From a virus, in the IMG/VR virus record IMGVR_UViG_3300020152_000007, positions 1-46,011 of that record: a stretch of 46,011 bases of DNA. One strand, 5' to 3'. The translations under genes and the position numbers were made by a program. The notes beneath the pieces are model-generated. The model was not told where the DNA came from, did not search any database, and was given only the letters and a program-made list of their open reading frames with translations. Shown here one piece after another: positions 718 to 45,179 of the stretch (position 1 is the first letter of the stretch; the number at the start of each line of letters is the position of its first letter).

Positions 718-721
718 ATTC

Positions 722-1080: not shown

Positions 1081-1102
1081 CAAACATCTCCCCCAAAACC
1101 TC

Positions 1103-1131
1103 TTGACAACTCCCACCAAACCCCGCACAAT
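1103..1131 (+). promoter_or_regulatory. Sigma70-like promoter for the first plus-strand gene
   Basis: TTGACA (1103..1108), 17-nt spacer, CACAAT (1126..1131). It mirrors the minus-strand TTGACAAC promoter across the inverted repeat. Confidence 0.5.
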
Positions 1132-1162
1132 TAACCATCCGTCAACCAACTGGAGACCCTCC

Positions 1163-1927
1163 ATGCCACACCCGACCAACAGCGCTACATACGAACAAAC
1201 CTTTAAACTCGTCGTTGAAGTCCTCGGCCGACGAGGACGTACTGAGGATATTGTGATTAAGCAACCCGACGAAAAGAAAGCGATTCGGTTTCGGCTTAGA
1301 TATTACAGCTTTTTGAAGGTACTGAAACGTGAGGCAGAAGAGATGTTTATCAAGGGCCGTAAAACCGGGTCCCCAGAACTGTGCGCGAAAGCAGAGGAAT
1401 TGCTTGAACAGTTAGTGCTGGTGCGTCGGTTTAAGGCAGTACTCGAAGGCAATACCGTTCTCTTTACTGACCGCGATGCGCAAGAAATTGACAACATTAA
1501 TAACCTGATGAGTGAGTTGATGAAAGACACTGCACATCTTTCGGCTGACATTATGACCAACACACAGGCAGCAAATAGTTTTGAAGCTAAACTCGAGGCG
1601 CAGGTAAAGGAAAGCCGAGAACAGCGCCTCGCCAACACGCCACCCCGCAATCCGCTTGATGACGTTCTCGACGAAACCCGCGATGCACCTGTCGGCATTT
1701 CCGCAAACACGCTGCTGGAGCGCACCGCTACCCGGCTCATCCACGGGGCACAAGCACAATTTACACTCCCTTTCGACACCCCTGACAGCGCAGCCGCCTT
1801 CCACCTGCAATGGACCACCTATTGCCTCGGTCGGCCCGACATCACCCCGCACCGCACTGACATCGACGGCAAGAACATCACCTTCACCCGCAACATCTTG
1901 GATGAATTTACAGGCCAGCAACCGTAA
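1163..1927 (+). CDS. Hypothetical early protein
   Basis: ORF-track frame 1052..1927. The internal ATG at 1163 has GGAG 7 nt upstream and lies downstream of the 1103 promoter, so the 1052 start was rejected. Confidence 0.7.
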   Translation: MPHPTNSATYEQTFKLVVEVLGRRGRTEDIVIKQPDEKKAIRFRLRYYSFLKVLKREAEEMFIKGRKTGSPELCAKAEELLEQLVLVRRFKAVLEGNTVLFTDRDAQEIDNINNLMSELMKDTAHLSADIMTNTQAANSFEAKLEAQVKESREQRLANTPPRNPLDDVLDETRDAPVGISANTLLERTATRLIHGAQAQFTLPFDTPDSAAAFHLQWTTYCLGRPDITPHRTDIDGKNITFTRNILDEFTGQQP

Positions 1928-1934
1928 ATAATGA

Positions 1935-1964
1935 TTGACAACTTGGACGGTCTTATTATATAAT
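1935..1964 (+). promoter_or_regulatory. Consensus sigma70 promoter
   Basis: TTGACA (1935..1940), 18-nt spacer, TATAAT (1959..1964). Confidence 0.7.
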
Positions 1965-1993
1965 GGGACGATGATTAAAATAATCATCACCCC
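1965..1993. promoter_or_regulatory. 29-bp imperfect palindrome, copy 1
   Basis: GGGACGATGATTAAAATAATCATCACCCC, immediately after the -10 hexamer. Confidence 0.85.
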
Positions 1994-2021
1994 ATCGACA
2001 ACCTTAGAAAGGAAACACTAA

Positions 2022-2189
2022 ATGCCTGAACTATACTCCCTCTTCCGTACCGAAAACGGACAGCTTATTCATATGCAAACCGGTCACCTGGAAGAACTTC
2101 AGGACCGCATGGATAACGAAGCTGAAGACTTAACCGGGGAAGATGCAATGTTAATTCTCCCCACCGTTGCCTTCGCGCAAAACCTGTAA
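2022..2189 (+). CDS. Small hypothetical protein (55 aa)
   Basis: Hand-translated MPELYSLFRTENGQLIHMQTGHLEELQDRMDNEAEDLTGEDAMLILPTVAFAQNL. AAAGGA lies upstream. First ORF after promoter/palindrome copy 1. Below the ORF-track size cutoff. Confidence 0.45.
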   Translation: MPELYSLFRTENGQLIHMQTGHLEELQDRMDNEAEDLTGEDAMLILPTVAFAQNL

Positions 2190-2241
2190 TCATACTGGGG
2201 GAAGTGCAACACGCATTTCCCCCTAAAGAGGGGACCCACAC

Positions 2242-2463
2242 ATGCCTACAAAAACCTCGCGACCGGCCCAACGCATCAGTGACGACGGGCTAAAAGCCTG
2301 GCTAACGCAAGTCCGGCAGAGCCTTTTAAATGCCTCAATCAGCCTTCCCCCGTACAACTCCCACGCCTTCCGCATTGACCGGCTGGACGAAGCCATCGCA
2401 AAGCTGCAGTGGCTAAAATCCCGCCTGCAAGCGGAACAAACCCTTGACCAGATGAAAGGCTAA
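2242..2463 (+). CDS. Hypothetical protein (73 aa)
   Basis: ORF track; purine-rich SD upstream; C-ending codon bias typical of this arm. Confidence 0.6.
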   Translation: MPTKTSRPAQRISDDGLKAWLTQVRQSLLNASISLPPYNSHAFRIDRLDEAIAKLQWLKSRLQAEQTLDQMKG

Positions 2464-2468
2464 ACGCG

Positions 2469-2798
2469 ATGCCAAACACCTCTACAAACTGGAACCTCGT
2501 CGACAAGAACTTCAACCGCATCTCGGTCGGGGATAAGCTCCCCGACTTCCGAGGCGACCTATGTACCGTTACCGGCCTCGGTCACCCACCACGCACACCT
2601 GAGAGTTCCGGTCGCATAGAACTCGACGGTAGCCTCTACTACCCCAGCATCGTTGACTGCATCTGGCTTACCGACGAGGCACTCTACGAAGCCCAGGTGA
2701 CCGCCCTCGAACACGCAGGCATCCCGCGCAGCGACGCGCAAGGCATAGTCGACGCGACAAAGCTTCAACAAACCCGCAGTACCCCCAACCACAACTAA
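2469..2798 (+). CDS. Hypothetical protein (109 aa)
   Basis: ORF track; tightly packed after the previous gene. Confidence 0.65.
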   Translation: MPNTSTNWNLVDKNFNRISVGDKLPDFRGDLCTVTGLGHPPRTPESSGRIELDGSLYYPSIVDCIWLTDEALYEAQVTALEHAGIPRSDAQGIVDATKLQQTRSTPNHN

Positions 2799-2812
2799 GG
2801 AGCAAGCGCAAC

Positions 2813-3097
2813 ATGGAAACCGCACTTATCATCGACAGCAACCGCATTTCAGTATTCCAACTTCCCGGCAACCAGTTGCCCGAGGTCATTATCCTCACAA
2901 CCGCCGCAGGGGACAGCGTAACCTACTCCGCCCTCGGCCTCTTTGACACCGGCAGCGAAACCACGCAGCCAGACGGCAACCCCCCGTCCGACCCGGAAAA
3001 CCCCGACGCGCCCCCCGCCGAGGAAAAGTCCGGGGGCGCTGGTGACCCCGCAACCGGGAACCAGGAAGAAACCAACGAAAAGCGCAGTCTGTTCTAA
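2813..3097 (+). CDS. Hypothetical protein (94 aa) with an acidic, Pro-rich C-terminus
   Basis: ORF track; AAGGAG upstream. Confidence 0.6.
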   Translation: METALIIDSNRISVFQLPGNQLPEVIILTTAAGDSVTYSALGLFDTGSETTQPDGNPPSDPENPDAPPAEEKSGGAGDPATGNQEETNEKRSLF

Positions 3098-3148
3098 CCC
3101 TGCCTCGAGCCAGTTCCCCACCCCTCGGGGAGCTGGTTCCGGGCAGGG
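3098..3148 (+). other. Extended GC-rich stem-loop directly after a stop codon
   Basis: CCCTGCC(3098..3104)/GGCAGGG(3142..3148) enclose CCAGTTCCCC(3110..3119)/GGGGAGCTGG(3127..3136). No U-tract follows. Confidence 0.5.
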
Positions 3149-3181
3149 AAGAACCCTGCACAACAAAGGAGACCCGACAAC

Positions 3182-3511
3182 ATGGATATAAAAGCTGAAA
3201 TTCTAGCCGCCGCAGCCGAGGCCGAACTCGCGCCCCAGTGCTACATCACCGGCTGCGCACTCTACCTCTCCACTCGCACGTGCTGCGCATGGGGCGACCT
3301 CTTCATCTTTGGCGATATGTACATCTTCAACGCCAGCACCTACAAAGAAGAGGCCATCCTATCCTACCACTCCCCCGAGACCCACCGCGAACAGCGCTGC
3401 CTCATCGTCCACGGCAACGACTACTTTGAGCGCCGAGGCGTCTTCGTCATCAACAAGCGGGACGCCGAGCTTAACGCCATCGCGAAAATGTACAAGGGGA
3501 TTGAAGAATGA
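3182..3511 (+). CDS. Hypothetical protein (109 aa)
   Basis: ORF track; AAGGAG upstream; ATGA overlap with the next gene. Confidence 0.65.
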   Translation: MDIKAEILAAAAEAELAPQCYITGCALYLSTRTCCAWGDLFIFGDMYIFNASTYKEEAILSYHSPETHREQRCLIVHGNDYFERRGVFVINKRDAELNAIAKMYKGIEE

Positions 3512-3996
3512 GCAACGGAACCCCTGAACAAAAAGCCGCCGCAAAGCTCGCGCTGGCTGAACTCTTCGGCGACCTGCTAACCCCGCCACCCAAGGGCAAA
3601 CCCGGGAGGCCCAAGAAAACCGCTTCCGGGGACGGCGAACCGAAGGTTTTCAAGCCTCGGGCCTTCCCCACCTCCCCACAAACCTCGCCCTTCTTCGAGG
3701 CGACTTCCCGCGAGTACTTCATCGTCGAGCAGCACTGCCTATCGTGCGGCAGCTTTACCCGCTACGCCGAAACCAAGATGCTCCGCTACAAGGCCGTCAA
3801 GCGGAAGGACGGGCTGGCAATAGAAATCCCTTGCTGCCTACCGGCCCCGCTCGACGTACCCAGCCTTGTCACATACCGGAGCGAGAGCACAGACTTCTGC
3901 GCGCACTGCGTAGAGATAACCTCCCGGCTCGACAGCAGCACCCTGTTCGAGCTTTCTAACCCCAACACTGCACTTCAACTAAAACTCTTTAATTAA
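3508..3996 (+). CDS. Putative DNA-binding protein with an AT-hook-like motif and a CxxC...CxxC zinc ribbon
   Basis: KGKPGRPKK (nt 3592..3618) resembles an AT-hook core. CLSCG and CAHC pairs are also present. Confidence 0.6.
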   Translation: MSNGTPEQKAAAKLALAELFGDLLTPPPKGKPGRPKKTASGDGEPKVFKPRAFPTSPQTSPFFEATSREYFIVEQHCLSCGSFTRYAETKMLRYKAVKRKDGLAIEIPCCLPAPLDVPSLVTYRSESTDFCAHCVEITSRLDSSTLFELSNPNTALQLKLFN

Positions 3997-4013
3997 GCGG
4001 AGGGAACCACCAA

Positions 4014-4346
4014 ATGAGCACACCAAACCAAACTGACAAAGACCGCGTCGAGGCGCTACTCGAAGAAGCGCGACAACGCGCCGAAGCGCAAAAGGCGCGG
4101 GGCGAAACACCTGACCCCATCCACCCGGACGAGCTTTTGCGCGCTGCCGCCGACGGAGAGCTTAAGCCCCTCTACACCGTACACGTATTTCCAGTGCCCG
4201 GTGCCGAGGGCCTCCTCGCTCCCGTCCTACACGTCACCGCAGACGGACGGCAGTTCTCCCGCGTTGACATCGCGGAACACCTCACCTCCCTCGCCATAGC
4301 CCTCGTAACGGGCGAGGGAGCAATCCTCAACGGAAAGGGACACTAA
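4014..4346 (+). CDS. Hypothetical protein (110 aa)
   Basis: ORF track; GGAGGG upstream. Confidence 0.65.
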   Translation: MSTPNQTDKDRVEALLEEARQRAEAQKARGETPDPIHPDELLRAAADGELKPLYTVHVFPVPGAEGLLAPVLHVTADGRQFSRVDIAEHLTSLAIALVTGEGAILNGKGH

Positions 4347-4347
4347 C

Positions 4348-4707
4348 ATGAAAAACACCCTGCTCGCTTGCCTGTTTAAGCGCATCTTTGGGAAGAAAAC
4401 GCCAGTGCTTACAAAGCCAGTCCTCCCGCCCGGCTACTACACCGTCAAGGCGTGGCACCCCGACGACTGTTACCACAGTTCCTCGCACTGCCGCCCCGGC
4501 ACCATCGTGTACCTTACGAAAGCCCTTGACCTCAGGGAGGACGGGACGGCTGTCGGATACCTGTTCATGTTCGACGAGGTAACGTGTATCTGGCGCTGGA
4601 CTTGCGTCTATCGCGCTTGGCTTCGCCCCCTGCGCGGGATGCGACTCAGCACCTTCACTGCCGCACATCCACAAGCGCCCACCTTCGAGGAGGTTCCACA
4701 TGTCTAG
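4348..4707 (+). CDS. Hypothetical protein (119 aa)
   Basis: ORF track; starts 1 nt after the previous stop. Confidence 0.6.
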   Translation: MKNTLLACLFKRIFGKKTPVLTKPVLPPGYYTVKAWHPDDCYHSSSHCRPGTIVYLTKALDLREDGTAVGYLFMFDEVTCIWRWTCVYRAWLRPLRGMRLSTFTAAHPQAPTFEEVPHV

Positions 4708-4993
4708 AGGCCGCACCGCTAACACCGAGAAATCTATCCGCTGGCGGATTGAGGTCAAGGAGCGGATTGCCGCGCAGGTCGAACTGCTCCTGCTCGACCC
4801 ACTTACCGGCGACATCGCTTACGGCGCCCGTTCCGCGCTCGTCAACCAGCTCCTCCGCGAGTGGCTCGACAAGCAGCGCCGGGCCAACCCCGTTATTGTG
4901 GAGGAAACCGAAGAGGACCGCCGCGAAGCTCGAGGCGACCGGGAACCCGAAATGCGCTTTCAGGCCGACCTCGACAAGAAGGACTTTGGCTAA
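4700..4993 (+). CDS. Putative ribbon-helix-helix (Arc/CopG-like) DNA-binding protein
   Basis: GAGGAGG 7 nt upstream. KSIRWRIEVKERIAAQVELLL...YGARSALVNQLLREWL fits a strand-helix-helix pattern. Confidence 0.55.
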   Translation: MSRGRTANTEKSIRWRIEVKERIAAQVELLLLDPLTGDIAYGARSALVNQLLREWLDKQRRANPVIVEETEEDRREARGDREPEMRFQADLDKKDFG

Positions 4994-5136
4994 TGTGGAT
5001 TCTCCTGTTCATCACGTTATCCGGGGAGTATGTCATCGACAGATTCCCCACGCAGGGGCAGTGCCTAGCCGAGGCCCGACTCTACAACCAAGGCAGTTTT
5101 CGGGATGAAATCTTTACATGTCGTAAGGCAAAATGA
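4993..5136 (+). CDS. Small protein with a hydrophobic N-terminus (47 aa)
   Basis: TAATG overlap with the previous gene. MWILLFITLSG... plus 2 Cys. Internal start within track ORF 4861..5136. Confidence 0.4.
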   Translation: MWILLFITLSGEYVIDRFPTQGQCLAEARLYNQGSFRDEIFTCRKAK

Positions 5137-5235
5137 AAACTTCACGTACAGCGGCACATAACTCGTGCTGTTGTGCGGGGGGCTTTCCCCAGCGACTGGC
5201 GGCGCTTACCGCCTAACTTTACGGAGAAAAAAGAA

Positions 5236-5877
5236 ATGACTAAGAAATGCGTTATCATAGCACTTATGGCACTGTTCACCCTACCAGTTTACGCGGGTAA
5301 CGACCGCGACGACTGCCCCGGAAATAGCTGTCACGGCGGTCAAGGTGGTCAGGGCGGTGATGGGGGTGCAGGCGGCGACGCTAATTCCCTCGGCATCGGG
5401 ATTGGTGTTGGCGGCTCAGCTAATGCCACCGGCGGCGACGCAACCGCTATTGGCCTGGGCGGCAAGGGCGGCGATGCCAGCGCCATCAGTGTAGGCGTGG
5501 GCGGTGAGGGTGGTAAAAGTTCCTCCGACGCCGATGCCAGCGCCAAGGCCGGGGCAAATGCCGGCTCTTCGAGTGGCGGTAATTCGCTCACCGTCAACGA
5601 GGGAGACTATGAGGCCCGTGCCATCCCGGTAGGCAGTTCTATCGCCGCCGGTGCTAACGGCACCTCGAAATGCCTGAAACATGCCAGCACCTCTGGTAAC
5701 CTGTTCTTTGTCTCGTTCGCACGCGCTTCCCACGAGCCTGACTACATGTGCTGGGCACAAGAACTGGGCGCTCCCGAGGTTGCAATACAGATGGCCTGCA
5801 ACGACTCCGGGTCGTTCCGTAAGGCTTACAACCAAATCGCCCGTCGGCACGGCAAGGAAGAGTGCCTGAGCGAGTAA
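5236..5877 (+). CDS. Secreted glycine-rich repeat protein
   Basis: The ATG at 5236 has GGAG 9 nt upstream. Signal-peptide-like MTKKCVIIALMALFTLPVYA. GG(D/S)A..(I/L)G.GVGG-type repeats. Cys-containing C-terminal domain. Confidence 0.7.
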   Translation: MTKKCVIIALMALFTLPVYAGNDRDDCPGNSCHGGQGGQGGDGGAGGDANSLGIGIGVGGSANATGGDATAIGLGGKGGDASAISVGVGGEGGKSSSDADASAKAGANAGSSSGGNSLTVNEGDYEARAIPVGSSIAAGANGTSKCLKHASTSGNLFFVSFARASHEPDYMCWAQELGAPEVAIQMACNDSGSFRKAYNQIARRHGKEECLSE

Positions 5878-6002
5878 CCGACCTCTCGCAAAGGGGCCGT
5901 TGCTAAACATGGAGAGAATCGCGACTCTGTGAAGTGTCTAGCCTGTAGTGCCTTCGGGCGCTATGGAGTAGGTACTTTCCCCCAACCGTTAAGGAGCTTT
6001 AA

Positions 6003-6233
6003 ATGAAAATACTCGCCACAATGCTTATCGCCGCCATCGCAATTCTGTTCTACCTGATGGTTAATCGGCCCGACCTGCAGCACGTCACCGACGCTTGCCT
6101 CAAGCAGTCTTATTTCGACATCTGCATGTTCAGGGAAGGCGCAACCCCCGAACTCTGTGAAGCCGCTGCAAAGTCAGCTTCCCTCCGCCCAAAGCACTCT
6201 GTAATGCCAACCTGCATTGAGGTGACCGAATGA
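6003..6233 (+). CDS. Membrane-anchored small Cys-containing protein (76 aa)
   Basis: AAGGAG 6 nt upstream; N-terminal TM segment ILATMLIAAIAILFYLMV; 4 Cys. Confidence 0.65.
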   Translation: MKILATMLIAAIAILFYLMVNRPDLQHVTDACLKQSYFDICMFREGATPELCEAAAKSASLRPKHSVMPTCIEVTE

Positions 6234-6394
6234 ACGAAGAAGACTTGCGCGCGGCCTTCGAGGCCAAACAGCTAATCCTCGGCGAAAGCCGGGAAGAACT
6301 CACCCGTACTCCCAGCGGCTACGAGCGTGAGGAAATTAATGCCGACTGGGTTTGGTTCAAGGAAGGAGTACGCTATGCAACAGAACGGAGATAA
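6230..6394 (+). CDS. Possible small ORF (54 aa)
   Basis: ATGA overlap with the previous stop. Hand-translated MNEEDLRAAFEAKQLILGESREELTRTPSGYEREEINADWVWFKEGVRYATERR. Overlaps the next gene by 20 nt. Confidence 0.3.
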   Translation: MNEEDLRAAFEAKQLILGESREELTRTPSGYEREEINADWVWFKEGVRYATERR

Positions 6395-7457
6395 GCCGGA
6401 AGAAACTCGGGTAGTGCCAGTAGAGCCGACAAACGATGAATTTGCCAAGAAAGTTATGGAGCACATTCCTGTACGCGAAAATACAAGGCTATTCAATCCA
6501 CCAACCCACGAGGTAGCCACCCCACAGCAGCAGGAGTTCGTGCAAACAGTACCCGACCACTGCGACCGTATCGTGTGGCGAGGGCACTATTACCACTTAC
6601 CGCTTGCAGCACAGCCACAAGAGGAGCTCGTGGAAGTATGCGCCGAAGCGTATCAGGTGGTCGGCTCCCTGCTTTCTGATGTTGGGGCGCTTGATACTGA
6701 CAAAGCCGAGAAGATACTGGACAATTTAGGTGAACAGCGCATGATTCATAAAGACGTACTCCCTTGGCCCTCGTTTGCGCAGCCGCAAGAGGAGCCGGAG
6801 GCCGAGCTTGGGAACGAAATGAGCCTCGACGATTTCAAAGAACTGCTTACCTCGTACGGAGGTGGCAGGTTTGTCGAGCTTCACTACCGTGGGCACTTAG
6901 CTTTTGGCATACTCGTCGCAGAGATGGCAGAGGGTGATAGTATGCGGCAGGTTGCTGCTGAGATTGTGTCGAAGTTAAACGCAGCCCCGCAGCAGCAAGA
7001 CACTGAGTCCTTACAACCGCAATGGAACAACCTTCCATCTGAGATAAAAGACTGGCATAAGCGTATTGAATCGCGGTTGCAGGGTGAGCCGGTGTTGTAT
7101 GCAAGAAAGAGTGAACTTGCGCAGTTGGAGTTCAAACACATCGAGAGCGAATACATCCTGACAGCGAGCACACGCCAAGACGAGGTGTATGACGCCCCCC
7201 TCTTCACCCAACCACTCACCGCTGACGCCATCTTTAATCAAGGGATAGAGGAAAGCGTGAATCGAGCAGCCGCCTTCGTCGCAAACAATGAGTGTGAGAT
7301 TGACTTGGCTGGACTTGCGCAAGAAATACGTAATGGAAAGCGCCCCACTGATATGGTGACGATAAGCAGGACAAAGTTGGAGGAAGCCTTCTCGGATGAT
7401 GGTGTAAATCTGACTAAGTTGGTAGAGGTTGTCTCCCGCGAACTGGAGGGGAAGTGA
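6375..7457 (+). CDS. Hypothetical protein (360 aa)
   Basis: Track ORF 6327..7457. The ATG at 6375 has AGGAG 7 nt upstream. Third codon positions are visibly more A/T-rich than in flanking genes. Confidence 0.7.
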   Translation: MQQNGDKPEETRVVPVEPTNDEFAKKVMEHIPVRENTRLFNPPTHEVATPQQQEFVQTVPDHCDRIVWRGHYYHLPLAAQPQEELVEVCAEAYQVVGSLLSDVGALDTDKAEKILDNLGEQRMIHKDVLPWPSFAQPQEEPEAELGNEMSLDDFKELLTSYGGGRFVELHYRGHLAFGILVAEMAEGDSMRQVAAEIVSKLNAAPQQQDTESLQPQWNNLPSEIKDWHKRIESRLQGEPVLYARKSELAQLEFKHIESEYILTASTRQDEVYDAPLFTQPLTADAIFNQGIEESVNRAAAFVANNECEIDLAGLAQEIRNGKRPTDMVTISRTKLEEAFSDDGVNLTKLVEVVSRELEGK

Positions 7458-7813
7458 TGAGCATGCATCGTAAGCCATTGACGGACTTGGAACGTGAAGG
7501 GCTAATAGCGCATGGGTTTGAGCGGGACATAGGAAAGCCAAGCATGCTCGCGGATGTATTTAGGCACGGCGTGGCATGGGCGCTCGCAGCGACAGAGAAG
7601 GATGCGGAGCTGTTAAAAGGCCTTCGTCGCCTATGCGGTTACGTGCAGGACGGAAGTGCGGAAACGGTATCAATCTATCAAGACGACGCTACGCGAGACT
7701 GGGGCGTACGAGTCGGGACAGCCTTTACAGGGCGCGACCGCAACTATCACGGGATTTCCTTCGAGGAAGCTCTTGAGGCCGCCTTCAAAAAGGAGCTCCC
7801 TCCCGATGCCTAA
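7454..7813 (+). CDS. Hypothetical protein (119 aa)
   Basis: ORF track; ATGA overlap with the previous gene. Confidence 0.6.
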   Translation: MMSMHRKPLTDLEREGLIAHGFERDIGKPSMLADVFRHGVAWALAATEKDAELLKGLRRLCGYVQDGSAETVSIYQDDATRDWGVRVGTAFTGRDRNYHGISFEEALEAAFKKELPPDA

Positions 7814-8180
7814 CATCCGCAACCGCAAGCGCTACCTCCCCATCGCGCAAGAACTCCGCAAGCGCCTTGAGGCCTACGGCATCAAGACAGAAATAAAAAC
7901 CATCGCCGCGTGGGGGAGCATTTACATTACCTGCGAGGACTCGCGGATGGGCCAAATCCGCATAGGTGACCACGACGAGCGCGACCGCTACGGCTACCGC
8001 TGGCAGGTGCGCACGGACCTTGAGGAGATTGCCATTGACACCTCAAAAGGTCACCGGCGCTTCTTCTACCCACCCTCGGAACTTGCCGCCATGGCCAAGC
8101 GCATGAAACAATACCACATCCGCATTCTGGAGAATGCTCAAAGGGAAGAAATATATGATAAACTCCAAGCCCAAGGGTAA
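7806..8180 (+). CDS. Hypothetical protein (124 aa)
   Basis: Internal ATG of track ORF 7656..8180, with AAGGAG about 9 nt upstream. Confidence 0.6.
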   Translation: MPNIRNRKRYLPIAQELRKRLEAYGIKTEIKTIAAWGSIYITCEDSRMGQIRIGDHDERDRYGYRWQVRTDLEEIAIDTSKGHRRFFYPPSELAAMAKRMKQYHIRILENAQREEIYDKLQAQG

Positions 8181-8424
8181 GCGGGGCTTCGCCTCGATGG
8201 ACCCCGAGAAGCAGCGACAGATTGCCAGCAAAGGTGGGAAGTCGGCACACGCGCTTGGGCTTGCCCACCGCTTCACCAGCGAAGAGGCTCGCGCCGCCGG
8301 CAAGAAGGGCGGGATGAGTTCCGGCTCGCAGCACCGATGGACCCCGGAGGAAGCGCAAGCGGCCGGGCGCAAGGGCGCACTTACCCGTAAAAGAAAACTC
8401 AACCAACGAAAGGACTTAAAATGA
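8155..8424 (+). CDS. KGG-repeat (YciG/general-stress-like) small basic protein
   Basis: RGFASMDPEKQRQIASKGGK, then AAGKKGG and AAGRKGA repeats. Start chosen at MINSKPKGK, so start confidence is lower. Confidence 0.6.
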   Translation: MINSKPKGKRGFASMDPEKQRQIASKGGKSAHALGLAHRFTSEEARAAGKKGGMSSGSQHRWTPEEAQAAGRKGALTRKRKLNQRKDLK

Positions 8425-8948
8425 TAATCCAGAAGCCAGTATACATGCAGCGTTATCCTGACGGCCTGTGGCGAGAGCTACCAGAAGGGGAGTTTCAAGC
8501 CGACAACCCCAACCATTCGCTCTTCTATGAGATGCAGTTTGCCGCTGACGACACCTCCGACCAACTCAATTCCTTCATCGAGTCATGGTATGAGTTCTTC
8601 CGCCAAATCCCCCGCACCATCCACCACCTTAACTTGCGCTGGTGGACCGACAGCAATGGCCGCGACATCCGGCGCAACCCTTACTGCTTCAGCAATAAGC
8701 TGGCGCTAATTCACAGCGAAATATCCGAGGCGCTTGAAGGCGACCGCAAGAACCTCTATGATACGCACCTTCCACAGTTCCCCATGCGTGACGTCGAACT
8801 CGCTGACGCCCTTATCCGTATCCTCGACCTCGCCGAAGCTTACAACATCGACATCGCCAAGGCGACGATTGAAAAGCTTAAATACAACCGACGTCGTGAG
8901 GACCATACGGCTGAGCACCGGGCAACTGCCAACGGAAAGAAGTACTAA
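8421..8948 (+). CDS. MazG-like nucleoside triphosphate pyrophosphohydrolase
   Basis: LIHSEISEALEG ... ELADALIRILDLAE ... KLKYNRRREDH pattern, typical of all-alpha MazG-type NTP-PPases. Confidence 0.65.
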   Translation: MIIQKPVYMQRYPDGLWRELPEGEFQADNPNHSLFYEMQFAADDTSDQLNSFIESWYEFFRQIPRTIHHLNLRWWTDSNGRDIRRNPYCFSNKLALIHSEISEALEGDRKNLYDTHLPQFPMRDVELADALIRILDLAEAYNIDIAKATIEKLKYNRRREDHTAEHRATANGKKY

Positions 8949-8949
8949 C

Positions 8950-9078
8950 GTGGACAAGGGTGCAATTGCGTTTATAAAATTCATAGTAGTTATGATGCTG
9001 CTGATGTCTATTCTCGGGCCGATTTTCGTACTCGCTATGCGCTGGGTAACTTCCTTCCCTGTAACCGGAGGTTGTTAA
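8950..9078 (+). CDS. Possible small membrane protein (42 aa, GTG start)
   Basis: VDKGAIAFIKFIVVMMLLMSILGPIFVLAMRW... fills an otherwise empty gap. Confidence 0.25.
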   Translation: MDKGAIAFIKFIVVMMLLMSILGPIFVLAMRWVTSFPVTGGC

Positions 9079-9079
9079 C

Positions 9080-9268
9080 ATGCTCAGCCTCGGCACACAA
9101 ATCAAGTCGCTTATGGGTTTGCTGGAACTCGATGACTTTACCTCATGGGAAACGGACTTTGTTTCCAGCGTAGCTCGGCAAACCCGCGAGGGGCAGGATA
9201 CAACTCGGCTGACCGAAAAGCAAATTGAGGTTATCGAGCGGCTGCATAAAAAACATTTTGGAGGATAA
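9080..9268 (+). CDS. Hypothetical protein (62 aa)
   Basis: ORF track; GGAGG 9 nt upstream. Confidence 0.6.
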   Translation: MLSLGTQIKSLMGLLELDDFTSWETDFVSSVARQTREGQDTTRLTEKQIEVIERLHKKHFGG

Positions 9269-9269
9269 T

Positions 9270-9647
9270 ATGAGCACACAACCTTTAACCTTGATGAACT
9301 GGAAGACCGACCCGGCCTTCGTGCAGTTTCTCCAGTTCGACTTCGACTTCAACTTCGCCTCCCCCGAGGCCAAGCGGCAGGTGATGACCCTGCTTCCCCT
9401 CGCCGTGGGCGACAACCGGATGCACGGAGCAATCGCCAATGCCGTGTTGAAAGAGGCACTTGACCTGTGGAACCGTCCGCGTGAACGGCACTTCTTCGTC
9501 CGCGAGAATATGCGCTGGCGGTACATCGGCATTGAGCGCTCCATGCATCTCATCCCTGTGAAAGCGCAGTATCGCGTTGGCCGACTCCGCCGCCGACTAT
9601 CCCCTGGCTCATTCTGCCAACAGCCAAGCCACGAAGTTATTGCTTGA
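9270..9647 (+). CDS. Hypothetical protein (125 aa)
   Basis: Internal ATG of track ORF 9225..9647, with GGAGG 6 nt upstream. Confidence 0.6.
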   Translation: MSTQPLTLMNWKTDPAFVQFLQFDFDFNFASPEAKRQVMTLLPLAVGDNRMHGAIANAVLKEALDLWNRPRERHFFVRENMRWRYIGIERSMHLIPVKAQYRVGRLRRRLSPGSFCQQPSHEVIA

Positions 9648-9672
9648 CAAACTGGATACGGGCGCGTAATAT
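9644..9672 (+). promoter_or_regulatory. Sigma70-like promoter
   Basis: TTGACA (9644..9649), 17-nt spacer, TAATAT (9667..9672). Confidence 0.65.
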
Positions 9673-9678
9673 TTTAAT

Positions 9679-9707
9679 GGGACGATGATTAAATTAATGA
9701 CCGTCCC
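9679..9707. promoter_or_regulatory. 29-bp imperfect palindrome, copy 2
   Basis: GGGACGATGATTAAATTAATGACCGTCCC, starting about 7 nt after the -10 (near the predicted transcription start). Confidence 0.85.
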
Positions 9708-9741
9708 AACTCTGAACCTCTACAACTTAAGGAGCTACACC

Positions 9742-10266
9742 ATGAAAGCATCACACATACTCAGCCTCATGCAAAACGACTACACGACCGTTCAGGTTGC
9801 TTACTCCGAGGGCGGCAAACTTTACACCTTCAAGGCACTGAAAAGTGACAACCTCGCGAAGGATGATTTTGTTGTCATCCCAACCAGTTACAACGACTGG
9901 GGCTACACCCTCGGCAAGGTCATCTCCGTCGACGAGGAGGCTGACATCGACACCTCCGTCGCCTACACCTACAAGTGGATTGTTGGCAAGGTCGACCTCG
10001 TCCGCTACGCAGGTATCCTGGAAGTGGAAAAACGCTTTGAGCGCCACATTCTTAATATGCAAAAAGCCAACACGCGCCGGCAGCTGGTACAGTCCGTCCT
10101 CGAAAGCTTTCCTGAGGGTTCAAAGGAACGCGCCGATTTCGAGCTGCTGCTGAACTCCGGCCAAAGTCTTGAACAAATCGAAAGGATGTTAAACAATGGA
10201 ACAAACCTCAACAACGACTCTAACGACGATGCCCCAGGCGCCGGTACTGGGGGTAGCGGAGCTTAA
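9742..10266 (+). CDS. Hypothetical protein (174 aa)
   Basis: Internal ATG of track ORF 9685..10266, with AAGGAG 7 nt upstream. The upstream extension would run through the palindrome. Confidence 0.7.
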   Translation: MKASHILSLMQNDYTTVQVAYSEGGKLYTFKALKSDNLAKDDFVVIPTSYNDWGYTLGKVISVDEEADIDTSVAYTYKWIVGKVDLVRYAGILEVEKRFERHILNMQKANTRRQLVQSVLESFPEGSKERADFELLLNSGQSLEQIERMLNNGTNLNNDSNDDAPGAGTGGSGA

Positions 10267-10477
10267 CGACCTCCGCCGCCGCGTACTCGCCGGCGAGCAA
10301 GTCTCCACCGAGGAACTCGCCGCCGGGATTAAGGCTATTCGCCAAGGCCGCGCCAGTGCAATGGCGGCTAAGGCGAAGGCCCCCGCCAAACGCAAGAAGA
10401 AACTCAGCGAAGAAGAAGCAGAAGCTGAGCTCGACAATCTATTAGGAGGTATTGGCCTTGGACAATCCGAAAAGTAA
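10196..10477 (+). CDS. Hypothetical protein with a Lys/Ala-rich basic segment (93 aa)
   Basis: ORF track. Overlaps the previous gene by 71 nt. An alternative ATG exists at 10229. Confidence 0.5.
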   Translation: MEQTSTTTLTTMPQAPVLGVAELNDLRRRVLAGEQVSTEELAAGIKAIRQGRASAMAAKAKAPAKRKKKLSEEEAEAELDNLLGGIGLGQSEK

Positions 10478-11420
10478 TCTTGAACTCGTTCTCGAGGGGG
10501 GCAAGGCCCCCTTCCCCGAGGTCATCGACAACACCTACCGCGAGGGCTTCACCCTCTGCCACCAAAAGCACTACTGGCAGGCCATCGTCCGCATAACCCC
10601 TGACGTGCCCAACATCCACCTTCATGCCGGGAAGAGTTTCGCCAAGGCTCTCGAAACTACCCGCCGGGAGTTTTATGAAAATGGAAAATCTTCCACCGAA
10701 GCAGTTGCCCTCGGCCATGCCGCCCTCATCCAAGCCTACGGCGACTTCGACGTTATCCACGGATACACTGACCACAACAAGTCCTGCGCCAATATGCTCC
10801 GAGCCTTCGAAGACTATTTCTTCGAGTATTCGCTTGACCATTCAAGCCTTGTACCGGTCACCACAGCAGACGGGAAGCGAGGTATCGAGTTTTCTTTTGC
10901 AATCCCCACTAACGTCTTGCATCCCACAACGGGCAATCCAATACTCTATGCGGGTCGATTCGATATGCTTGGGGAGGATGTGGACCTTCAGTGGGTCGTC
11001 GATGAGAAAACTTCCTCGCAGCTTGGCCAGTCTTGGAACAGTCAGTGGGACCTTAATTCCCAGTTTACGGGCTACTGTATGGCGGCAAGACAATACGGAT
11101 ACCCTGTGGCAGGTGCCATTATCCGTGGAGTTGGCCTTCTTAAGACGAAGATTTCTCATCAGCAAGCTGTCATCTATCGACCTGAATGGATGATTGAGCG
11201 CTGGTGGAACCAACTTCACCGCGACCTCAAAATGATGATTGCCCTTTGGGAAGCGGACGACGGCAAGGGCAGCGCCTACGACTTTGCCCTCGGCGGGGCC
11301 TGCACATCCTACGGCAACTGCACCTTCAAGAATATGTGCATGTCGAACACTCCCCATGACTGGGCGCGAGTTGGCTTCCGGGCGAACGAGTGGAGTCCGT
11401 TGGCCGGCTTCGACCACTAA
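10452..11420 (+). CDS. PD-(D/E)xK exonuclease, Cas4/RecB-like, with a C-terminal Cys cluster
   Basis: GRFDMLGED...VVDEKTSS...QFTGY motifs; Cys at LCHQ plus CTSYGNCTFKNMC; TTG start after AGGAGG. Confidence 0.6.
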   Translation: MALDNPKSNLELVLEGGKAPFPEVIDNTYREGFTLCHQKHYWQAIVRITPDVPNIHLHAGKSFAKALETTRREFYENGKSSTEAVALGHAALIQAYGDFDVIHGYTDHNKSCANMLRAFEDYFFEYSLDHSSLVPVTTADGKRGIEFSFAIPTNVLHPTTGNPILYAGRFDMLGEDVDLQWVVDEKTSSQLGQSWNSQWDLNSQFTGYCMAARQYGYPVAGAIIRGVGLLKTKISHQQAVIYRPEWMIERWWNQLHRDLKMMIALWEADDGKGSAYDFALGGACTSYGNCTFKNMCMSNTPHDWARVGFRANEWSPLAGFDH

Positions 11421-11424
11421 GCCA

Positions 11425-11781
11425 ATGTCGGGTCTTGTCAAAGTTGACGTGTTTTTCGGGGCCGAGTTTATCGGCTCCCTTACCCAATACCACTTCAACA
11501 CCAACAGCGACCGGCCGGCAATACAGAACGGCAGCGTTCTCGGCCTCTGCCCGTTTTGCGGGGAAATCTGGCTTCGGGCCGTCCACGCCGAGGGCCTGCC
11601 GTACTGGCGGACCGTCGAGCTACCTTGTTTAACCCATGCCCACCTGTGGGGGGACCATGCATTCAGGTGGGGCACTTTTGAGCACCTTATCGGGGACATT
11701 ACCGACGCCCCTCATGATGTGCTTTTACTCGAATTCCTCTGGTGGTGCAAGCGCCGGGGAAACAACCTTTTAGGAGATTAG
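11425..11781 (+). CDS. Hypothetical Cys/His-containing protein (118 aa)
   Basis: Internal ATG of track ORF 11239..11781, just after the previous stop; CPFCG...C..H.H. Confidence 0.55.
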   Translation: MSGLVKVDVFFGAEFIGSLTQYHFNTNSDRPAIQNGSVLGLCPFCGEIWLRAVHAEGLPYWRTVELPCLTHAHLWGDHAFRWGTFEHLIGDITDAPHDVLLLEFLWWCKRRGNNLLGD

Positions 11782-11784
11782 AAA

Positions 11785-12081
11785 ATGTTTTCAGCTAGAG
11801 ACTTAGCAGACCCACAAATTTCAGCCGTACCAAGCGCTCGCGGCGAAGTCACCTCAAACATGACCGACATTCAAGAAACAATAAACGCACTGGAAAACCT
11901 TCTGGGAAATCTAGAAGACCGTCTTAAGCCAGTTACTGCGGAGTCCCCGCAAGCTGTCAGTGATGGCATAAAGCCGCCGTCTGGCGATACCCAACTCGGC
12001 TATGCTCTCAACGAAGTTCAGTTCCGCCTTGAAGGTATTCGCGTCCGTATGTTCACTCTGCTGAATTGCTGTCAGCTATAG
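11785..12081 (+). CDS. Hypothetical protein (98 aa)
   Basis: ORF track; AGGAG 8 nt upstream. Confidence 0.6.
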   Translation: MFSARDLADPQISAVPSARGEVTSNMTDIQETINALENLLGNLEDRLKPVTAESPQAVSDGIKPPSGDTQLGYALNEVQFRLEGIRVRMFTLLNCCQL

Positions 12082-12090
12082 AAAAGAGGC

Positions 12091-12119
12091 TTGACACCTG
12101 CATTTAATGGGGATATGAT
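12091..12119 (+). promoter_or_regulatory. Sigma70-like promoter overlapping palindrome copy 3
   Basis: TTGACA (12091..12096), 17-nt spacer, TATGAT (12114..12119). Confidence 0.6.
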
Positions 12120-12137
12120 TTTTTTAATCATCACCCC
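12109..12137. promoter_or_regulatory. 29-bp imperfect palindrome, copy 3
   Basis: GGGGATATGATTTTTTTAATCATCACCCC; contains the -10 hexamer of the 12091 promoter. Confidence 0.8.
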
Positions 12138-12173
12138 ATTACCAGCTACCACTAACCTCAGGAACCAGATACC

Positions 12174-12467
12174 ATGCCAAATACCAAAACCCTTACCGCG
12201 TTTGTATATGCTCATAAATCCGCTTACTCCACCCCTGAAGAGTCGCACTTTATCATGCTCAGCGGCTACCCCATCGACGACCCAAGCTTCATTTTGCTCG
12301 AAACCCGCGACCTCGAGGTGAATGTACCCGAGGAATCCGAACTCATCCCGAAAACAGTTGCTGCCCTTGAGGCGAAAAAGCAAAAGATTCGGGCAGATGC
12401 TCATGTGGAAGTCGAAAAAATCGAAGACCGCATTCAGTCCCTTCTCTACCTAACCCACAAGGAATAA
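12174..12467 (+). CDS. Hypothetical protein (97 aa)
   Basis: ORF track; first gene after promoter/palindrome copy 3. Confidence 0.6.
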   Translation: MPNTKTLTAFVYAHKSAYSTPEESHFIMLSGYPIDDPSFILLETRDLEVNVPEESELIPKTVAALEAKKQKIRADAHVEVEKIEDRIQSLLYLTHKE

Positions 12468-12472
12468 AACCT

Positions 12473-19313: not shown

Positions 19314-19318
19314 AACTT

Positions 19319-19347
19319 GGGGCGGTGATTAAATCAATTACCGTCCC
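19319..19347. promoter_or_regulatory. 29-bp imperfect palindrome, copy 4
   Basis: GGGGCGGTGATTAAATCAATTACCGTCCC, 5 nt after the polymerase stop codon. Confidence 0.85.
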
Positions 19348-19403
19348 ATGTTCGTCTGTGGTCAACCGCACATACACGCTACCGGGGCATGTGATATGGA
19401 CAA

Positions 19404-19490
19404 AAACGCATTTAAAACGCATTATACACGCATAACTCAAATCCGGGCGGTCACAGTACCGACCCCAGATTAAATCCGTATAAACGCATT
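19404..19490 (+). repeat. Phased iteron-like repeats A(A/C)ACGCAT(T/A)
   Basis: AAACGCATT at 19404 and 19415, ACACGCATA at 19426 (11-bp spacing), and AAACGCATT again at 19482 (56 bp further on). Confidence 0.75.
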
Positions 19491-24100: not shown

Positions 24101-27100
24101 ACCGGCGAAAGAACACCGAGACCTTGCAAATGCAGGGCCAAATCTACTGGAGTTCTCCAGATATGAATAGCCCCGACTTCGGAGAGTTCCAGCGGATTGC
24201 GGATGTTCAGATACACTGGAATAATGTTCATCCCAGTATCTTGCGGCCGCATAGTATCTCCGCCTACGGCATTCCGTTGTCCCCGGAACTCATCAAGTGC
24301 AATCCGGGCGTGAACTTCTTCCGGGGCTGACCTATACAGTCGGGCATGTGCGGCGAGTAAATCACCAAAGTGCGCACCAATATCTCCGCTATTGAAAGTG
24401 TGGATATCAGCCTTCGTTCCGTGGAACATTACCAGCGGACGACCGCTCGCCGTGACCACTTTACTTGCATTCGCCGGGTCATTCTCCCAGTCACCAAACC
24501 AAGCCTTGAAAAACGGGCTCCGCTCGCGATGCTTCACCCAAGCCGCAATAGCTTCTTTCTGTTGAGCCTCCTCTGCCCCTGCTGTCCGGGCGCCGTTCTG
24601 CGGGTCGGTGTCAAGCTGCTTCCGGACCCGCATTTTAAGCATCTCCACCATGCGCAGGTGAGCCGTGTTCAGGTCGTTACCGCGAATCAACTTATACAGC
24701 TCTTGCTTTTGCTTCACGCTAAAGCTACCGAAGGTCACAGCCTTACGGAGTTTCTGCGCCATGTAATTGTCGCGAGTCATAGGCAAAGTGTCCTTCGCCT
24801 TATCCAGAGCCTCCTTTACTTCCCCACTTACCGAGGAGGCGAATTCCTGCGGCGCAACCAGCTGGCTCAATTTCCCGAGCGATTGTATCCAGGCCTCAAA
24901 GCTGGTCCCGGCCGAAATCCGCCAGGTTTGCCCATTGTCGAGCTTTAGCCCCTTTTTCAGCGCAATGAAAAGCTTCCGCAACGAGTTCTGCACCTTTTCC
25001 AGCGTCGAACCCATAAGCTGCTGCCGAACCTTTTCCTCCGCTTCAACATGCTTAATTCCGCCGCTGAAGTACTCCCCCTTGCCGAGGGCAGTATCCCTAC
25101 CGAGTCCTTTCTCATGCGCATACCTGGCCATCTTTTCAGCCATGAACTCGTCGAAACTCAGATAGTCCTCAACCAGCGCATTCGTCAATTCATCAATTTG
25201 CTGCGAAATCGCCTGCCGCTCTTCCGGCACCCGTGTTACAGCCATCCGTGCCCGAAGCGTTGCGATGTCCTTATTCCCATTCGAGACAACGCGACGAACA
25301 AAGCTCTCCGCATTCATCCCCGAGTACCCACCCATTGCCTTGACCAGTTGCCGCTGCACTGCCATCGCCGGGGACATCCAGTGCTGTTGGAACCACTCCG
25401 CCGACTGCGTTTTCATTTGCGCCCGCAGTTGATTGTATTCCTTCGCCAGCTCAGCTTGCTCCGGATTCAACCCCGCGATAACCTCTTCGCTTATTCTTCC
25501 CTGCCGTTGTTCGAGGGTAAACGCTGATTGTACTTCCGGCGCCACGCCTTCAAGGAAGCGGTGCATCGTAAGTGCATGTCCAAACTCATGGTAGACATTA
25601 TAGAAAGCTTTCGCTTTGGTATGCTTGTTAAAACTGCCGGCATTGAGTGTACCTTCTTCAGTTGCTGAAAAGTTCCGTACGAAAGCTGGGATAATGAGGT
25701 ATTCCCCACTAGCCAGTTTCTGCGTCGTACCCACCGCTTGCCGGGTGCTCTGCGTTTCATTTGCCAGCACAATCGTTGCATCGGGCATGAAATCCTGACG
25801 GAGCTTTTCATACAGCTCGTGATAGCCTGCCAGTACATCGTCGCTGCGGTCCGCAGTAGGCTCTCCGATTACATACGTAGCCGGCTTTGTTTTGACTTTA
25901 CCGAGGGGCTGGCCGACCTGCTCCGCTGGTCCATAGGCAATACGACGCTGACTTCTCGGAACCGCATCGTTTGGGTTCGGCTCATAATTCTCCGCATTCA
26001 CCCGCACTTTCAGCGTGTTCCCAATTTGCGCGTCGGAGCTTAAAGCTTGGTCCACACCCACCGCACTGGTCCCATCGTTCGCCTCGCCGAAAGGCAAGAC
26101 TTTCTGCACCTGTGCCGCTTGGACTTGCACCGCCAGCTCTTCGTCTGCCAGCGGGTCAGGCAACTGGATAAGGGCTTCGCGGTCGGGTGGGAGGTCCGGT
26201 AAATCTTGGGACGTTGATTGATTTAATGACCGTCCCGTTAAATCACCTTCAGCGTTCAGCTCATTCAGAATATTTTGCAGAACCTCTGAGCCTTCCTTAT
26301 CGCCGGCAGTTGTGGCCGTGGCCAGTTCTGTCTCCAGCCCGTCGATGGGATTTTCCATCGGCAGCTCAGGTTCCGTTCGTTGGGGCAACAGAGCATCAAT
26401 TCCCTTCGCCGTCGCGCCACCAAGCACTGCTGCAAATGGAGTCTGTATCGCCGTGTCGACGACGCTCGCTCCCATCTCTTCGAGGAATTGTCCCAGCGGT
26501 TTGTCGGGCGTGTCGATGGCTTGCTTAATTCCTTCCTGCACAATGGTCGTAGGAATTTCCGTCATCAGCTCCCGGCCGACATACTTCATCAGCATTTTGC
26601 CGAAGGCTTCTTGCCCGAGGTCTTTAATCAACCCACCAATCGGGGAAAGCTCAAACGCCGTACCAACACCTGCCTGCAGGCCTGACGAGACCAGCGCACG
26701 TTCGTGACCGGAACCTTCATCCCGGGATTCCCCGTATGCCGGTAGCATTTCCAGCGGTGCCGCAATTGACAACGCCGCAGCTGGACTCTTCGTCGCCACA
26801 CCAGCAGCGATTGCCGGAGCCATTGTCGCTACGCTCGTTGCAACCCCCTGCGCATGCCGAAGCGGTTCACTCGGATTCGCCGGCAAAGCATCCTGCAGTT
26901 CGTTCTGCATCGCGCTTCGTTGCGCTGCCATCTGCGTATCATGCGACATAATCTCAGTGTTGCGCAGGCTTTCGGCCGCACCGTAGACTTGCGTGTATGC
27001 CTGTTGGAAGGGAATTCCAGAATCGACGAGTGCCCGAATCTGCAAGTTCTGCTCCCGGGTCAGCCCGGTGAAGCCTTCGGTATCAAGCGGTTTCGGCCGC

Positions 27101-37972: not shown

Positions 37973-37989
37973 AACGCCCTCCGAGAAAT

Positions 37990-38018
37990 GGGACGGAAAT
38001 TAAAATAATCACCGTCCC
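37990..38018. promoter_or_regulatory. 29-bp imperfect palindrome, copy 6
   Basis: GGGACGGAAATTAAAATAATCACCGTCCC, 27 nt downstream of the capsid-gene stop and 17 nt upstream of the glycosyltransferase ATG (minus-strand direction). Confidence 0.85.
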
Positions 38019-38045
38019 ACAAATTACAGAATCACTTACCCAGGC

Positions 38046-45012: not shown

Positions 45013-45042
45013 AGTATAGGGGCGGGGGCGTGGGCTTGTCGA
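45013..45042 (-). promoter_or_regulatory. Candidate promoter of the late (minus-strand) operon
   Basis: Minus strand reads TCGACA (45042..45037), an 18-nt spacer, then TATACT (45018..45013). Confidence 0.3.
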
Positions 45043-45073: not shown

Positions 45074-45102
45074 TGGGGTGGTGATTAATTTAATCTCCGT
45101 CC
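45074..45102. promoter_or_regulatory. 29-bp imperfect palindrome, copy 7
   Basis: GGGGTGGTGATTAATTTAATCTCCGTCCC, in the divergent gap between the late operon and paralog B. Confidence 0.85.
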
Positions 45103-45179
45103 CAAGAATTCCCCGTTTTTTCAAGCGCCGCTTGCGGCTGTTTCGTGGTCGCACAGCGTCGCGCATGGGGGGAGGGGGG

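Follow-up and report, generated by a model that had tools for sequence, protein, structure and literature searches.

The uncultured phage IMGVR_UViG_3300020152_000007, whose 46,011 nt record we analysed at full length (hereafter the window), contains in its early arm three near-consensus sigma70 promoters that are each fused to a palindrome, which raises the question of what such a palindrome does there and whether it is, as an initial annotation proposed, the operator of a repressor. The three palindrome copies on which that proposal was built do exist; the genome total, however, is seven. The element is 31 bp long, with the consensus TGGGACGGTGATTAA-A-TTAATCACCGTCCCA (which can also be written T-GGGACGGTGATTA-AWT-TAATCACCGTCCC-A), and its copies begin at positions 1964, 9678, 12108, 19318, 26207, 37989 and 45074, with none expected in shuffled sequences. 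All seven are orthologous in the closest relative, IMGVR_UViG_3300020131_000002 (45,131 bp, about 75 % nucleotide identity; rebuilt from overlapping loci free of conflicts), and six of the seven are located exactly at the junctions of gene blocks. When a metagenome collection was scanned with a degenerate palindrome pattern, only this 45,131 bp relative was recovered, plus unrelated elements. We put at roughly 40 % the probability that the palindrome is a genome-wide cis-element that is recognized sequence-specifically, its most likely reader being a dimeric protein of the phage that binds it as double-stranded DNA, a reading in which we infer the binding, the identity of the protein and the sign of its effect at each site.

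The promoter-palindrome cassettes themselves were found with the spacings first reported, at the starts of successive plus-strand gene blocks. The first promoter, P1, is TTGACA-N18-TATAAT at 1935..1964 (plus strand; 12/12 consensus positions; -10 at 1959-1964), with a predicted start at about 1971 and a gene block from the ATG at 2022, and palindrome copy 1 (TGGGACGATGATTAAAATAATCATCACCCCA, 1964..1994) opens with the last T of its -10. P2, TTGACA-N17-TAATAT at 9644..9672 (plus strand; 10/12; -10 at 9667-9672), has a predicted start at about 9679-9680 and precedes the block from ATG 9742; its -35 hexamer contains the TGA stop (9645-9647) of the open reading frame (ORF) 9225-9647, and copy 2 (TGGGACGATGATTAAATTAATGACCGTCCCA, 9678..9708) begins 5-6 nt past its -10. 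In P3, TTGACA-N17-TATGAT at 12091..12119 (plus strand; 11/12), the -10 (12114-12119) is embedded in the left arm of copy 3 (TGGGGATATGATTTTTTTAATCATCACCCCA, 12108..12138), the predicted start at about 12126 falls in the loop, and the block begins at ATG 12174. The TTGACAAC/TTGACAAA contexts of the -35 were confirmed at 1103, 1935 and 9644 and, on the minus strand, at 750. Promoter-like sites number 25 in the early arm versus 9.5 ± 3.4 in shuffles, and 10 versus 10.4 in the late arm, where there is no enrichment; five early-arm plus-strand sites score at least 10/12, three of which are palindrome-fused. Each of the three cassettes is retained in the closest relative with its -35, spacing and palindrome (TTGACA-N17-TATAAT at P1, TTGACA-N17-TAACAT at P2 and TTGACA-N17-CATGAT at P3), and cassette 1, at roughly 70 bp, forms an island of identity between flanks that cannot be aligned to that genome. 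Furthermore, the geometry of cassette 3 recurs around TTGACA-N17-GATGAT in genome L106. The cassettes exist, are conserved and are under functional constraint.

The palindrome had been described as covering the -10/+1 region in all three cassettes. For the predicted +1 this is the case in three of three (copy 1 spans about -7 to +24, copy 2 -1 to +29 and copy 3 -18 to +13), but the -10 is covered in copy 3 only. Because the palindrome covers +1, a bound protein could block RNA polymerase there. At P1, P2 and P3 such a protein would keep host RNA polymerase off the promoter or prevent its escape, and through these sites the three early/middle gene blocks would be turned off together.

In order to examine the arms of the palindrome, we compared 28 half-sites, i.e. 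both arms of the seven copies in the window and in the closest relative. Positions G2-4, A11 and T13 are invariant and T1, G7 and T12 nearly so, whilst positions 5, 6, 8-10, 14, 15 and the centre vary. Between the two genomes 23/217 palindrome positions are substituted, and these changes strike positions 5, 10 and 15 but never 2-4, 11 or 13. Such a pattern of TGGG and ATT blocks fits contacts along one face of duplex DNA, and stem stability alone would not yield it; the half-site T-GGG-N2-G-N3-ATT-AA would present to the protein two invariant blocks about one helical turn apart. Pairing between the arms, by comparison, shows no excess: arm matches within copies number 152 versus 152.4 ± 3.8 when arms are shuffled, and 81.6 % of cells are paired versus a shuffle mean of 81.6 %. 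Substitutions in copies 1, 2, 3, 5 and 7 are non-compensatory. No isolated half-sites were found in the window, the arms occurring only as inverted pairs at one fixed spacing. In a more distant relative, L080, an exact 15-mer, ATGGGGAGGTTAATT, is present in three copies about 7 kb apart (7.2 and 7.7 kb), and it is the partner arms that deviate. The lack of excess complementarity within copies, taken together with the invariant blocks, favours sequence-specific recognition over a pure hairpin, and the comparison of sequences thus favours arms that behave as binding half-sites held to a consensus, rather than as stems kept by compensatory change.

These results count against the main rival explanation, which we consider unlikely on balance, namely that the palindrome is a hairpin boundary element with no dedicated protein, serving in either direction as a terminator or attenuator in nascent RNA or as protection of 3' ends, with the next promoter nested in it. 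Transcription would start at or in the stem, and the new transcripts, carrying no complete hairpin, would escape. Uniformity within a genome would follow from common descent and recombination between copies, as has been proposed for the PeSL cassettes of T4-type phages. Non-compensatory change and unexceptional complementarity are not what this explanation predicts, and stem stability leaves the invariant TGGG/ATT blocks and the identity of half-sites between copies unexplained.

The remaining four copies widen the question beyond the cassettes. Copy 4 (19318..19348) starts 4 nt past the stop codon of the DNA polymerase gene, and its arms are identical in the closest relative. About 50 nt downstream of it, in a conserved non-coding stretch, lies the promoter-like site TGGACA-N17-CATTAT (19397..19425, plus strand, 9/12), which would drive 19506-21161, encoding a Zn-ribbon protein, a primase and a helix-turn-helix (HTH) protein. 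Copy 5 (26207..26237) is inside the gene of a 2078 aa virion protein, in the codons of residues about 370-380; it is kept in the closest relative, where about 110 nt around it are better conserved than the remainder of the gene. Copy 6 (37989..38019) is found on the minus strand between the stop of the capsid gene (38046) and the start of the next gene (37972). Copy 7 (45074..45104), conserved together with its flanks, has its centre at about -83 and precedes the -35 of the late arm by 31 nt. The promoter concerned, TCGACA-N18-TATACT (45013..45042, minus strand, 10/12), lies upstream of the ATG at 44983, has a -35 context conserved in the closest relative and is the only good candidate for the late arm. 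Bound at copies 4, 5 and 6, the same protein could act as a roadblock or insulator marking the ends of units; from copy 7, at about -83, it might assist late transcription or insulate it. Copies 4 and 6 may additionally act as RNA 3' hairpins. As a separate observation, the non-coding stretch 45105-45174 beside copy 7 is about 90 % identical in the closest relative, compared with some 75 % for the background. A GCGCCGCTTGCGGC hairpin and a T-run lie within it, Rfam gives no match, and the stretch may represent a small RNA or a regulatory region.

We extended the comparison to deeper relatives with 45-67 % DNA polymerase identity, and again observed palindromes at the same landmarks, each genome having a sequence of its own (L113, L108, L111, L109/L075, L110/L046, L080, L026, L037, L104 and L115). 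In L113 the palindrome abuts the CATAAT of a TTGACA promoter and occurs again after the DNA polymerase gene, with a further copy at residue about 391 of a giant ORF of 2337 aa. In L108, and again in L111, one copy lies 4-5 nt past a -10 and another after the DNA polymerase gene, whilst L109/L075 and L110/L046 share an ATTATAT-N3-ATATAAT type that follows the DNA polymerase and capsid genes and is also found elsewhere. The palindromes of L026, L037 and L104 form families of their own. Spacing is uniform within genomes, the nearest to an exception being L037, with loops of 7 and 8 nt. Uniformity within genomes, divergence between them and orthologous positions together point to a specificity factor encoded by each genome, or else to concerted evolution.

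The position of the palindrome relative to the promoter is, by comparison, variable. It fills the -35/-10 spacer in L115, surrounds the -10 in copy 3 and in L106, abuts the -10 in copy 1 and in L113, and lies 3-6 nt past it in copy 2, L106, L108 and L111. Varied register of this kind is acceptable for an operator, but not for a hairpin required at the 5' end of an RNA. It therefore bears on recognition at the RNA level, in which a 5' hairpin would be bound by a phage factor (an antiterminator resembling N/boxB, or a processing nuclease) or would stabilize the mRNA. The last of these registers would place the hairpin at the extreme 5' end of the transcript, and a palindrome sequence specific to each genome would suit such a factor. 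In copies 1 and 3 and in L113, L115 and L106, however, the predicted start is inside the palindrome and the fused promoter would not make the hairpin, so that in the window a hairpin in the early transcript, as a nut/boxB-type antitermination site would need, is predicted for copy 2 only; copy 7 is upstream of its promoter; the loop bases, usually the determinants for proteins that bind hairpins, are the least conserved; and there is no match in Rfam. We accordingly give RNA-level recognition only a slim chance.

If a protein binds the palindrome as duplex DNA, the window offers a candidate for it. The last gene of the early arm (20883-21161, plus strand) encodes a basic protein of 92 aa with a CC...C...C set of cysteines and an HTH. 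Syntenic homologues of this Cys4-HTH protein are found at the end of the early arm in relatives with palindrome families, and 41 cluster representatives were identified in a large protein library, with HTH_23 matching 23 of 39 family members. An AlphaFold2 model built with 39 sequences has four helices and a pLDDT of 82.6, whereas one from only three sequences was unusable (pLDDT 45). A second small putative DNA-binding protein, a Zn-ribbon of 63 aa (CxxC...CCxxC) with a C-terminal heptad-like segment, is encoded at 19506-19697 on the plus strand and is confined to close relatives. For the paralogues 171-659 and 45276-45785 and the conserved ORF 13713-14174, no informative family matches were obtained.

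A number of observations weigh against recognition of the palindrome by such a protein. Of the proposal that it occupies the position of a repressor operator, what stood is that the dyad covers +1 and that the arms resemble half-sites; the distribution went against it, four of the seven copies being located away from the three promoters (two follow the polymerase and capsid genes, one is within the giant gene and one precedes the late -35). The three L106 copies measure about 25, 40 and 31 nt and have only an outer TGGGGYGR block in common, a variation in length that is a poor fit to a rigid dimer, and the palindromes of some relatives, at 45-53 bp, are long for an operator. Copy 6 shows one compensatory change, from A:T to C:G, in the closest relative. 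With regard to the candidate protein, a Foldseek search of its model against the PDB returned nothing with an E-value below 1, the weak top matches being HTH regulators, and L108 and L111 have a near-identical putative recognition helix yet different palindromes; for these two reasons the assignment of 20883-21161 as the palindrome-binding factor is speculative, and we name it as a candidate only. The stem-loops of T4-type PeSL cassettes are lineage-specific with no known binding protein (PMC4122927), so that uniformity within a genome is in itself no proof of a trans factor. Finally, the two post-gene copies, 4 and 6, form the most stable sense hairpins, far above their own antisense strands, and a strong hairpin is present within 60 nt of the capsid stop, where copy 6 lies, in 32 of 38 relatives; 22 of these hairpins possess a T-rich tail and are true terminators.

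How well each copy folds as RNA bears on the hairpin boundary element described above. Predicted energies on the sense and antisense strands (kcal/mol) were -14.9 and -18.4 for copy 1, -12.9 and -14.4 for copy 2, -15.8 and -17.0 for copy 3, -20.4 and -11.8 for copy 4, -10.5 and -11.7 for copy 5, -18.4 and -14.8 for copy 6, and -11.5 and -14.7 for copy 7. All copies fold well (z-scores of -2.7 to -6.2), and in copies 4 and 6, which look like functional RNA 3' hairpins as judged from these predictions, pairing is kept through G:U or compensatory change. We nevertheless do not rely on the strand asymmetry, because the A:C/G:U differences stem from a few shared variant arms and not from independent events. 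Additional support for a hairpin comes from placement at gene-block junctions, from several relatives in which the hairpin after the capsid gene has the same ATGGGGCGG...AT-rich style as the window palindrome, from L106, where all copies are stems with a GGGG base despite their differing lengths, and from loops that range from 1 to 8 nt across genomes. The predicted starts agree with a nested promoter, those of copies 1 and 3 being within the hairpin (stem or loop) and that of copy 2 coinciding with the first stem bases, and PeSLs provide a precedent for lineage-specific cassettes of promoter and stem-loop.

Against this, a U-tract is found beside none of the seven copies on either strand, the nearest approach being the copy 6 tail AUUUCUC, although the genome has canonical terminators elsewhere: the terminator scan lists U-tract terminators at 54-68 (plus), 144-127 (minus) and 14204-14220 (plus), with no palindrome copy among them. 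As a canonical intrinsic (Rho-independent) terminator the palindrome falls short on the U-tract in all seven copies, although its stems are stable. Placement at the 3' end of a gene applies to copies 4 and 6, but not to copy 5, which is intragenic, or to copy 7, which is upstream of an operon; moreover, copy 5 is within an essential-looking gene of 6 kb, in which termination would do harm. As RNA, the copies fused to promoters fold worse on the sense than on the antisense strand. Scans for Rfam families and tRNAs in the window found none.

The spacing of the copies bears on one further explanation, by which the palindrome is a signal in DNA structure that extrudes as a cruciform and would serve to prime replication, in recombination or resolution, in packaging or in the stepwise entry of the genome. 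Its possible readers are an endonuclease I-like protein, the ParB-methyltransferase and the small terminase. Extrusion of a cruciform is favoured by the AT-rich centre between GC-rich ends, and the gaps between successive copies are mostly about 7 kb (7.7, 7.2, 6.9 and 7.1), as are those in L080. The position of the intragenic copy is conserved, copy 7 is about 90 nt upstream of a putative small-terminase gene, the phage encodes a ParB-domain methyltransferase, and the orthologue of ORF 43888-44397 is annotated as a putative endonuclease I in two relatives. Regular spacing is, however, broken by two gaps of 2.4 and 11.8 kb, and a structural signal does not account for the conserved registers in which three copies are fixed to sigma70 promoters. 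We regard it as improbable.

The genome in which the palindrome is found is organized as two convergent arms. Nucleotides 1-127 of the window are identical to its last 127 nt (45885-46011), so that the window is a circular assembly with overlapping ends and the real genome is about 45,884 bp; the contig of the closest relative also carries a 127 nt terminal overlap. The plus arm (about 1.1-21.2 kb) contains early and replication genes, amongst them a PD-(D/E)XK nuclease and an AAA_24 ATPase (both from the family scan), a fusion of an N-terminal ParB-like domain with a DNA methyltransferase (14384-15670, plus strand; conserved in 77 related loci), the DNA polymerase (16977-19313, plus strand; stop codon 19311-19313), the plus-strand primase of the 19506-21161 unit, and ThyX. 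The minus arm (21.1-45.0 kb) contains virion genes, the first late gene having its ATG at 44983; amongst them are those of the portal, the large terminase, the major capsid protein (38046-39233) and the polyvalent protein of 2078 aa (21109-27345, minus strand). This last possesses an ART-PolyVal ADP-ribosyltransferase domain at residues 967-1133, and may be a candidate for an ejected, host-modifying enzyme. Hairpin promoters for an N4-type virion RNA polymerase were considered and rejected, as the 2078 aa protein showed only ART-PolyVal, no PDB sequence match and none of the RNA polymerase motifs searched. No phage RNA polymerase gene was detected in the window by family scan, PDB sequence search or motif patterns applied to the giant protein. 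Pfam and PHROG scans of about 50 ORFs were nearly empty, and the family scans, most late-arm genes being outside them, revealed neither an integrase nor an immunity repressor. One early gene (8134-8424, plus strand) has the KGG stress-induced repeat motif (PF10685, E = 3e-15), which is unusual for a phage early region. Given the sigma70-type promoters and Shine-Dalgarno sites, the host is probably Gram-negative.

By megablast with window positions 1-12500, no match to GenBank phages was obtained. Judged by the capsid protein, Microcystis phage Mel-JY34 (58 %) and Vibrio phage VS-ABTNL-3 (48 %) are the nearest cultured phages; in both, a palindrome family is absent at the stringency applied. 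IMG/VR, by contrast, holds a large family of uncultured relatives, and in genome collections the close relatives are phage-sized contigs in unrelated bins of metagenome-assembled genomes, not prophages. The region 9.3-21 kb is collinear with the closest relative, whereas 2000-9600 is mosaic, only about one third of it aligning, in short pieces. This mosaic stretch downstream of cassette 1 resembles the hyperplastic early regions of other phages. It contains intergenic hairpins at 2196-2224 (TGGGGGAAGTGC-aacac-GCATTTCCCCCT) and 3108-3138 (CCAGTTCCCC-acccct-CGGGGAGCTGG), which are outside the 31 bp family.

Several further features were noted towards the ends of the window. The paralogues 171-659 (minus strand, 162 aa) and 45276-45785 (plus strand, 169 aa), which have homologues in about 40 related loci, face each other across the assembly junction and converge on the terminators 54-68 (plus) and 144-127 (minus). 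The former has the promoter TTGACA-17-TAATAT at 750->722, and the latter a weak candidate, TATACA-17-TATAGT, at 45180-45208. Positions 840-960, between the divergent promoters at 750 (minus) and 1103 (plus), consist of low-complexity CCCACACTCACACTCACTCACTC followed by a T-run of about 11, and cannot be aligned to the closest relative by blastn. Separately, an unrelated repeat palindrome, TGGGACGGAGATT-N5-AATCTCCGYCCCA with ttgtcag/ctgacaa flanks, was encountered in contigs of up to 386 kb from gut and other metagenomes (L188, L189, L191, L192, L194-L196, L199, L200, L204, L206 and L207); its arm coincidentally equals one arm of copy 7, and it is probably a bacterial repeat or terminator.

The relevance of the element comes from the kind of phage that carries it. 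In this group no RNA polymerase gene was detected and hardly any early proteins are annotated, yet it shows two convergent arms, with clear sigma70 promoters in the early arm only. A conserved element at unit boundaries, with a lineage-specific sequence, is a testable handle on the timing of early, middle and late expression. Should a protein bind it, the stoperator idea of an operator combined with an elongation block would be extended from temperate actinophages to a lytic phage. If none does, the palindrome would represent a compact design of a promoter inside a terminator, useful as a natural insulator part.

Amongst known systems, lambdoid OR/OL and the p4 sites of phi29 share with the palindrome its dyad symmetry, its overlap with the core promoter or start and a possible dual role in early and late expression; through the p4 sites, early promoters are repressed and late promoters activated. 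Classical operators are 14-20 bp long and clustered at the promoters that they regulate, not after or inside structural genes, where copies in the window are also found. The position of copy 6 is that of the intrinsic terminators that follow major capsid genes (e.g. T7 T-phi), but unlike these the window copies have no U-tract and present one conserved sequence at seven sites.

A closer likeness is to the PeSL of T4-type phages, which consists of an early sigma70-like promoter with a stem-loop of lineage-specific stem directly upstream, at the borders of variable gene blocks (PMC4122927). Both are repeated, compact cassettes of a sigma70-like promoter and a genome-specific stem, and cassette 1 likewise heads a mosaic early region. 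The order of elements nevertheless rules out membership: in PeSLs the stem-loop is upstream, whereas here the palindrome is downstream of or across the -10/+1, with only copies 4 and 7 preceding a promoter-like site, by 50 and 31 nt. PeSLs, moreover, are many per genome and flank single ORFs, as opposed to three cassettes here and a palindrome that also occurs free of promoters, even within a gene.

The dispersal of the copies finds its counterpart in mycobacteriophages. The 17 bp dyad repeat of Cluster O (TGTTCGGNNNCCGAACA) likewise has dyad symmetry, invariant arms and a variable, AT-rich centre, and is dispersed between and inside genes at positions conserved among relatives; it is, however, shorter than the 31 bp palindrome, present in more than 30 copies rather than seven, and has no reported fusion to promoters, to which three or four of the window copies are tied. 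Stoperators are about 13-14 bp long, are oriented relative to transcription and occur in dozens of copies. Those of Cluster A (L5-type immunity repressor) are short asymmetric sites, bound by a monomer, at which the bound repressor stops elongation (PMC9283540). There, one phage DNA-binding specificity serves an early promoter and many sites in the genome (PMC9283540), which is what we propose here. As far as the sequence can tell, the likeness is one of distribution, with copies both at promoters and dispersed in transcribed regions. The phages differ in lifestyle, stoperators belonging to temperate phages and the palindrome to phage-sized contigs rather than prophages, and the element here is a symmetric palindrome of 31 bp in only seven copies. 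Stoperators are nevertheless the only known scheme that would unite copies at promoters with copies after and inside genes. It is conceivable, although we hold it doubtful in its full form, that in a lytic, uncultured podophage lineage widespread in metagenomes, one symmetric 31 bp site would serve as operator, elongation barrier and upstream late-promoter site, at each boundary between transcription units and once within the largest gene, read by the Cys4-HTH protein with specificities that co-evolve between lineages; that is, as a palindromic 'stoperator' regulon that would set the timing of the entire lytic programme with no phage RNA polymerase. As it stands, the palindrome departs in at least one defining feature from stoperators and PeSL cassettes alike.

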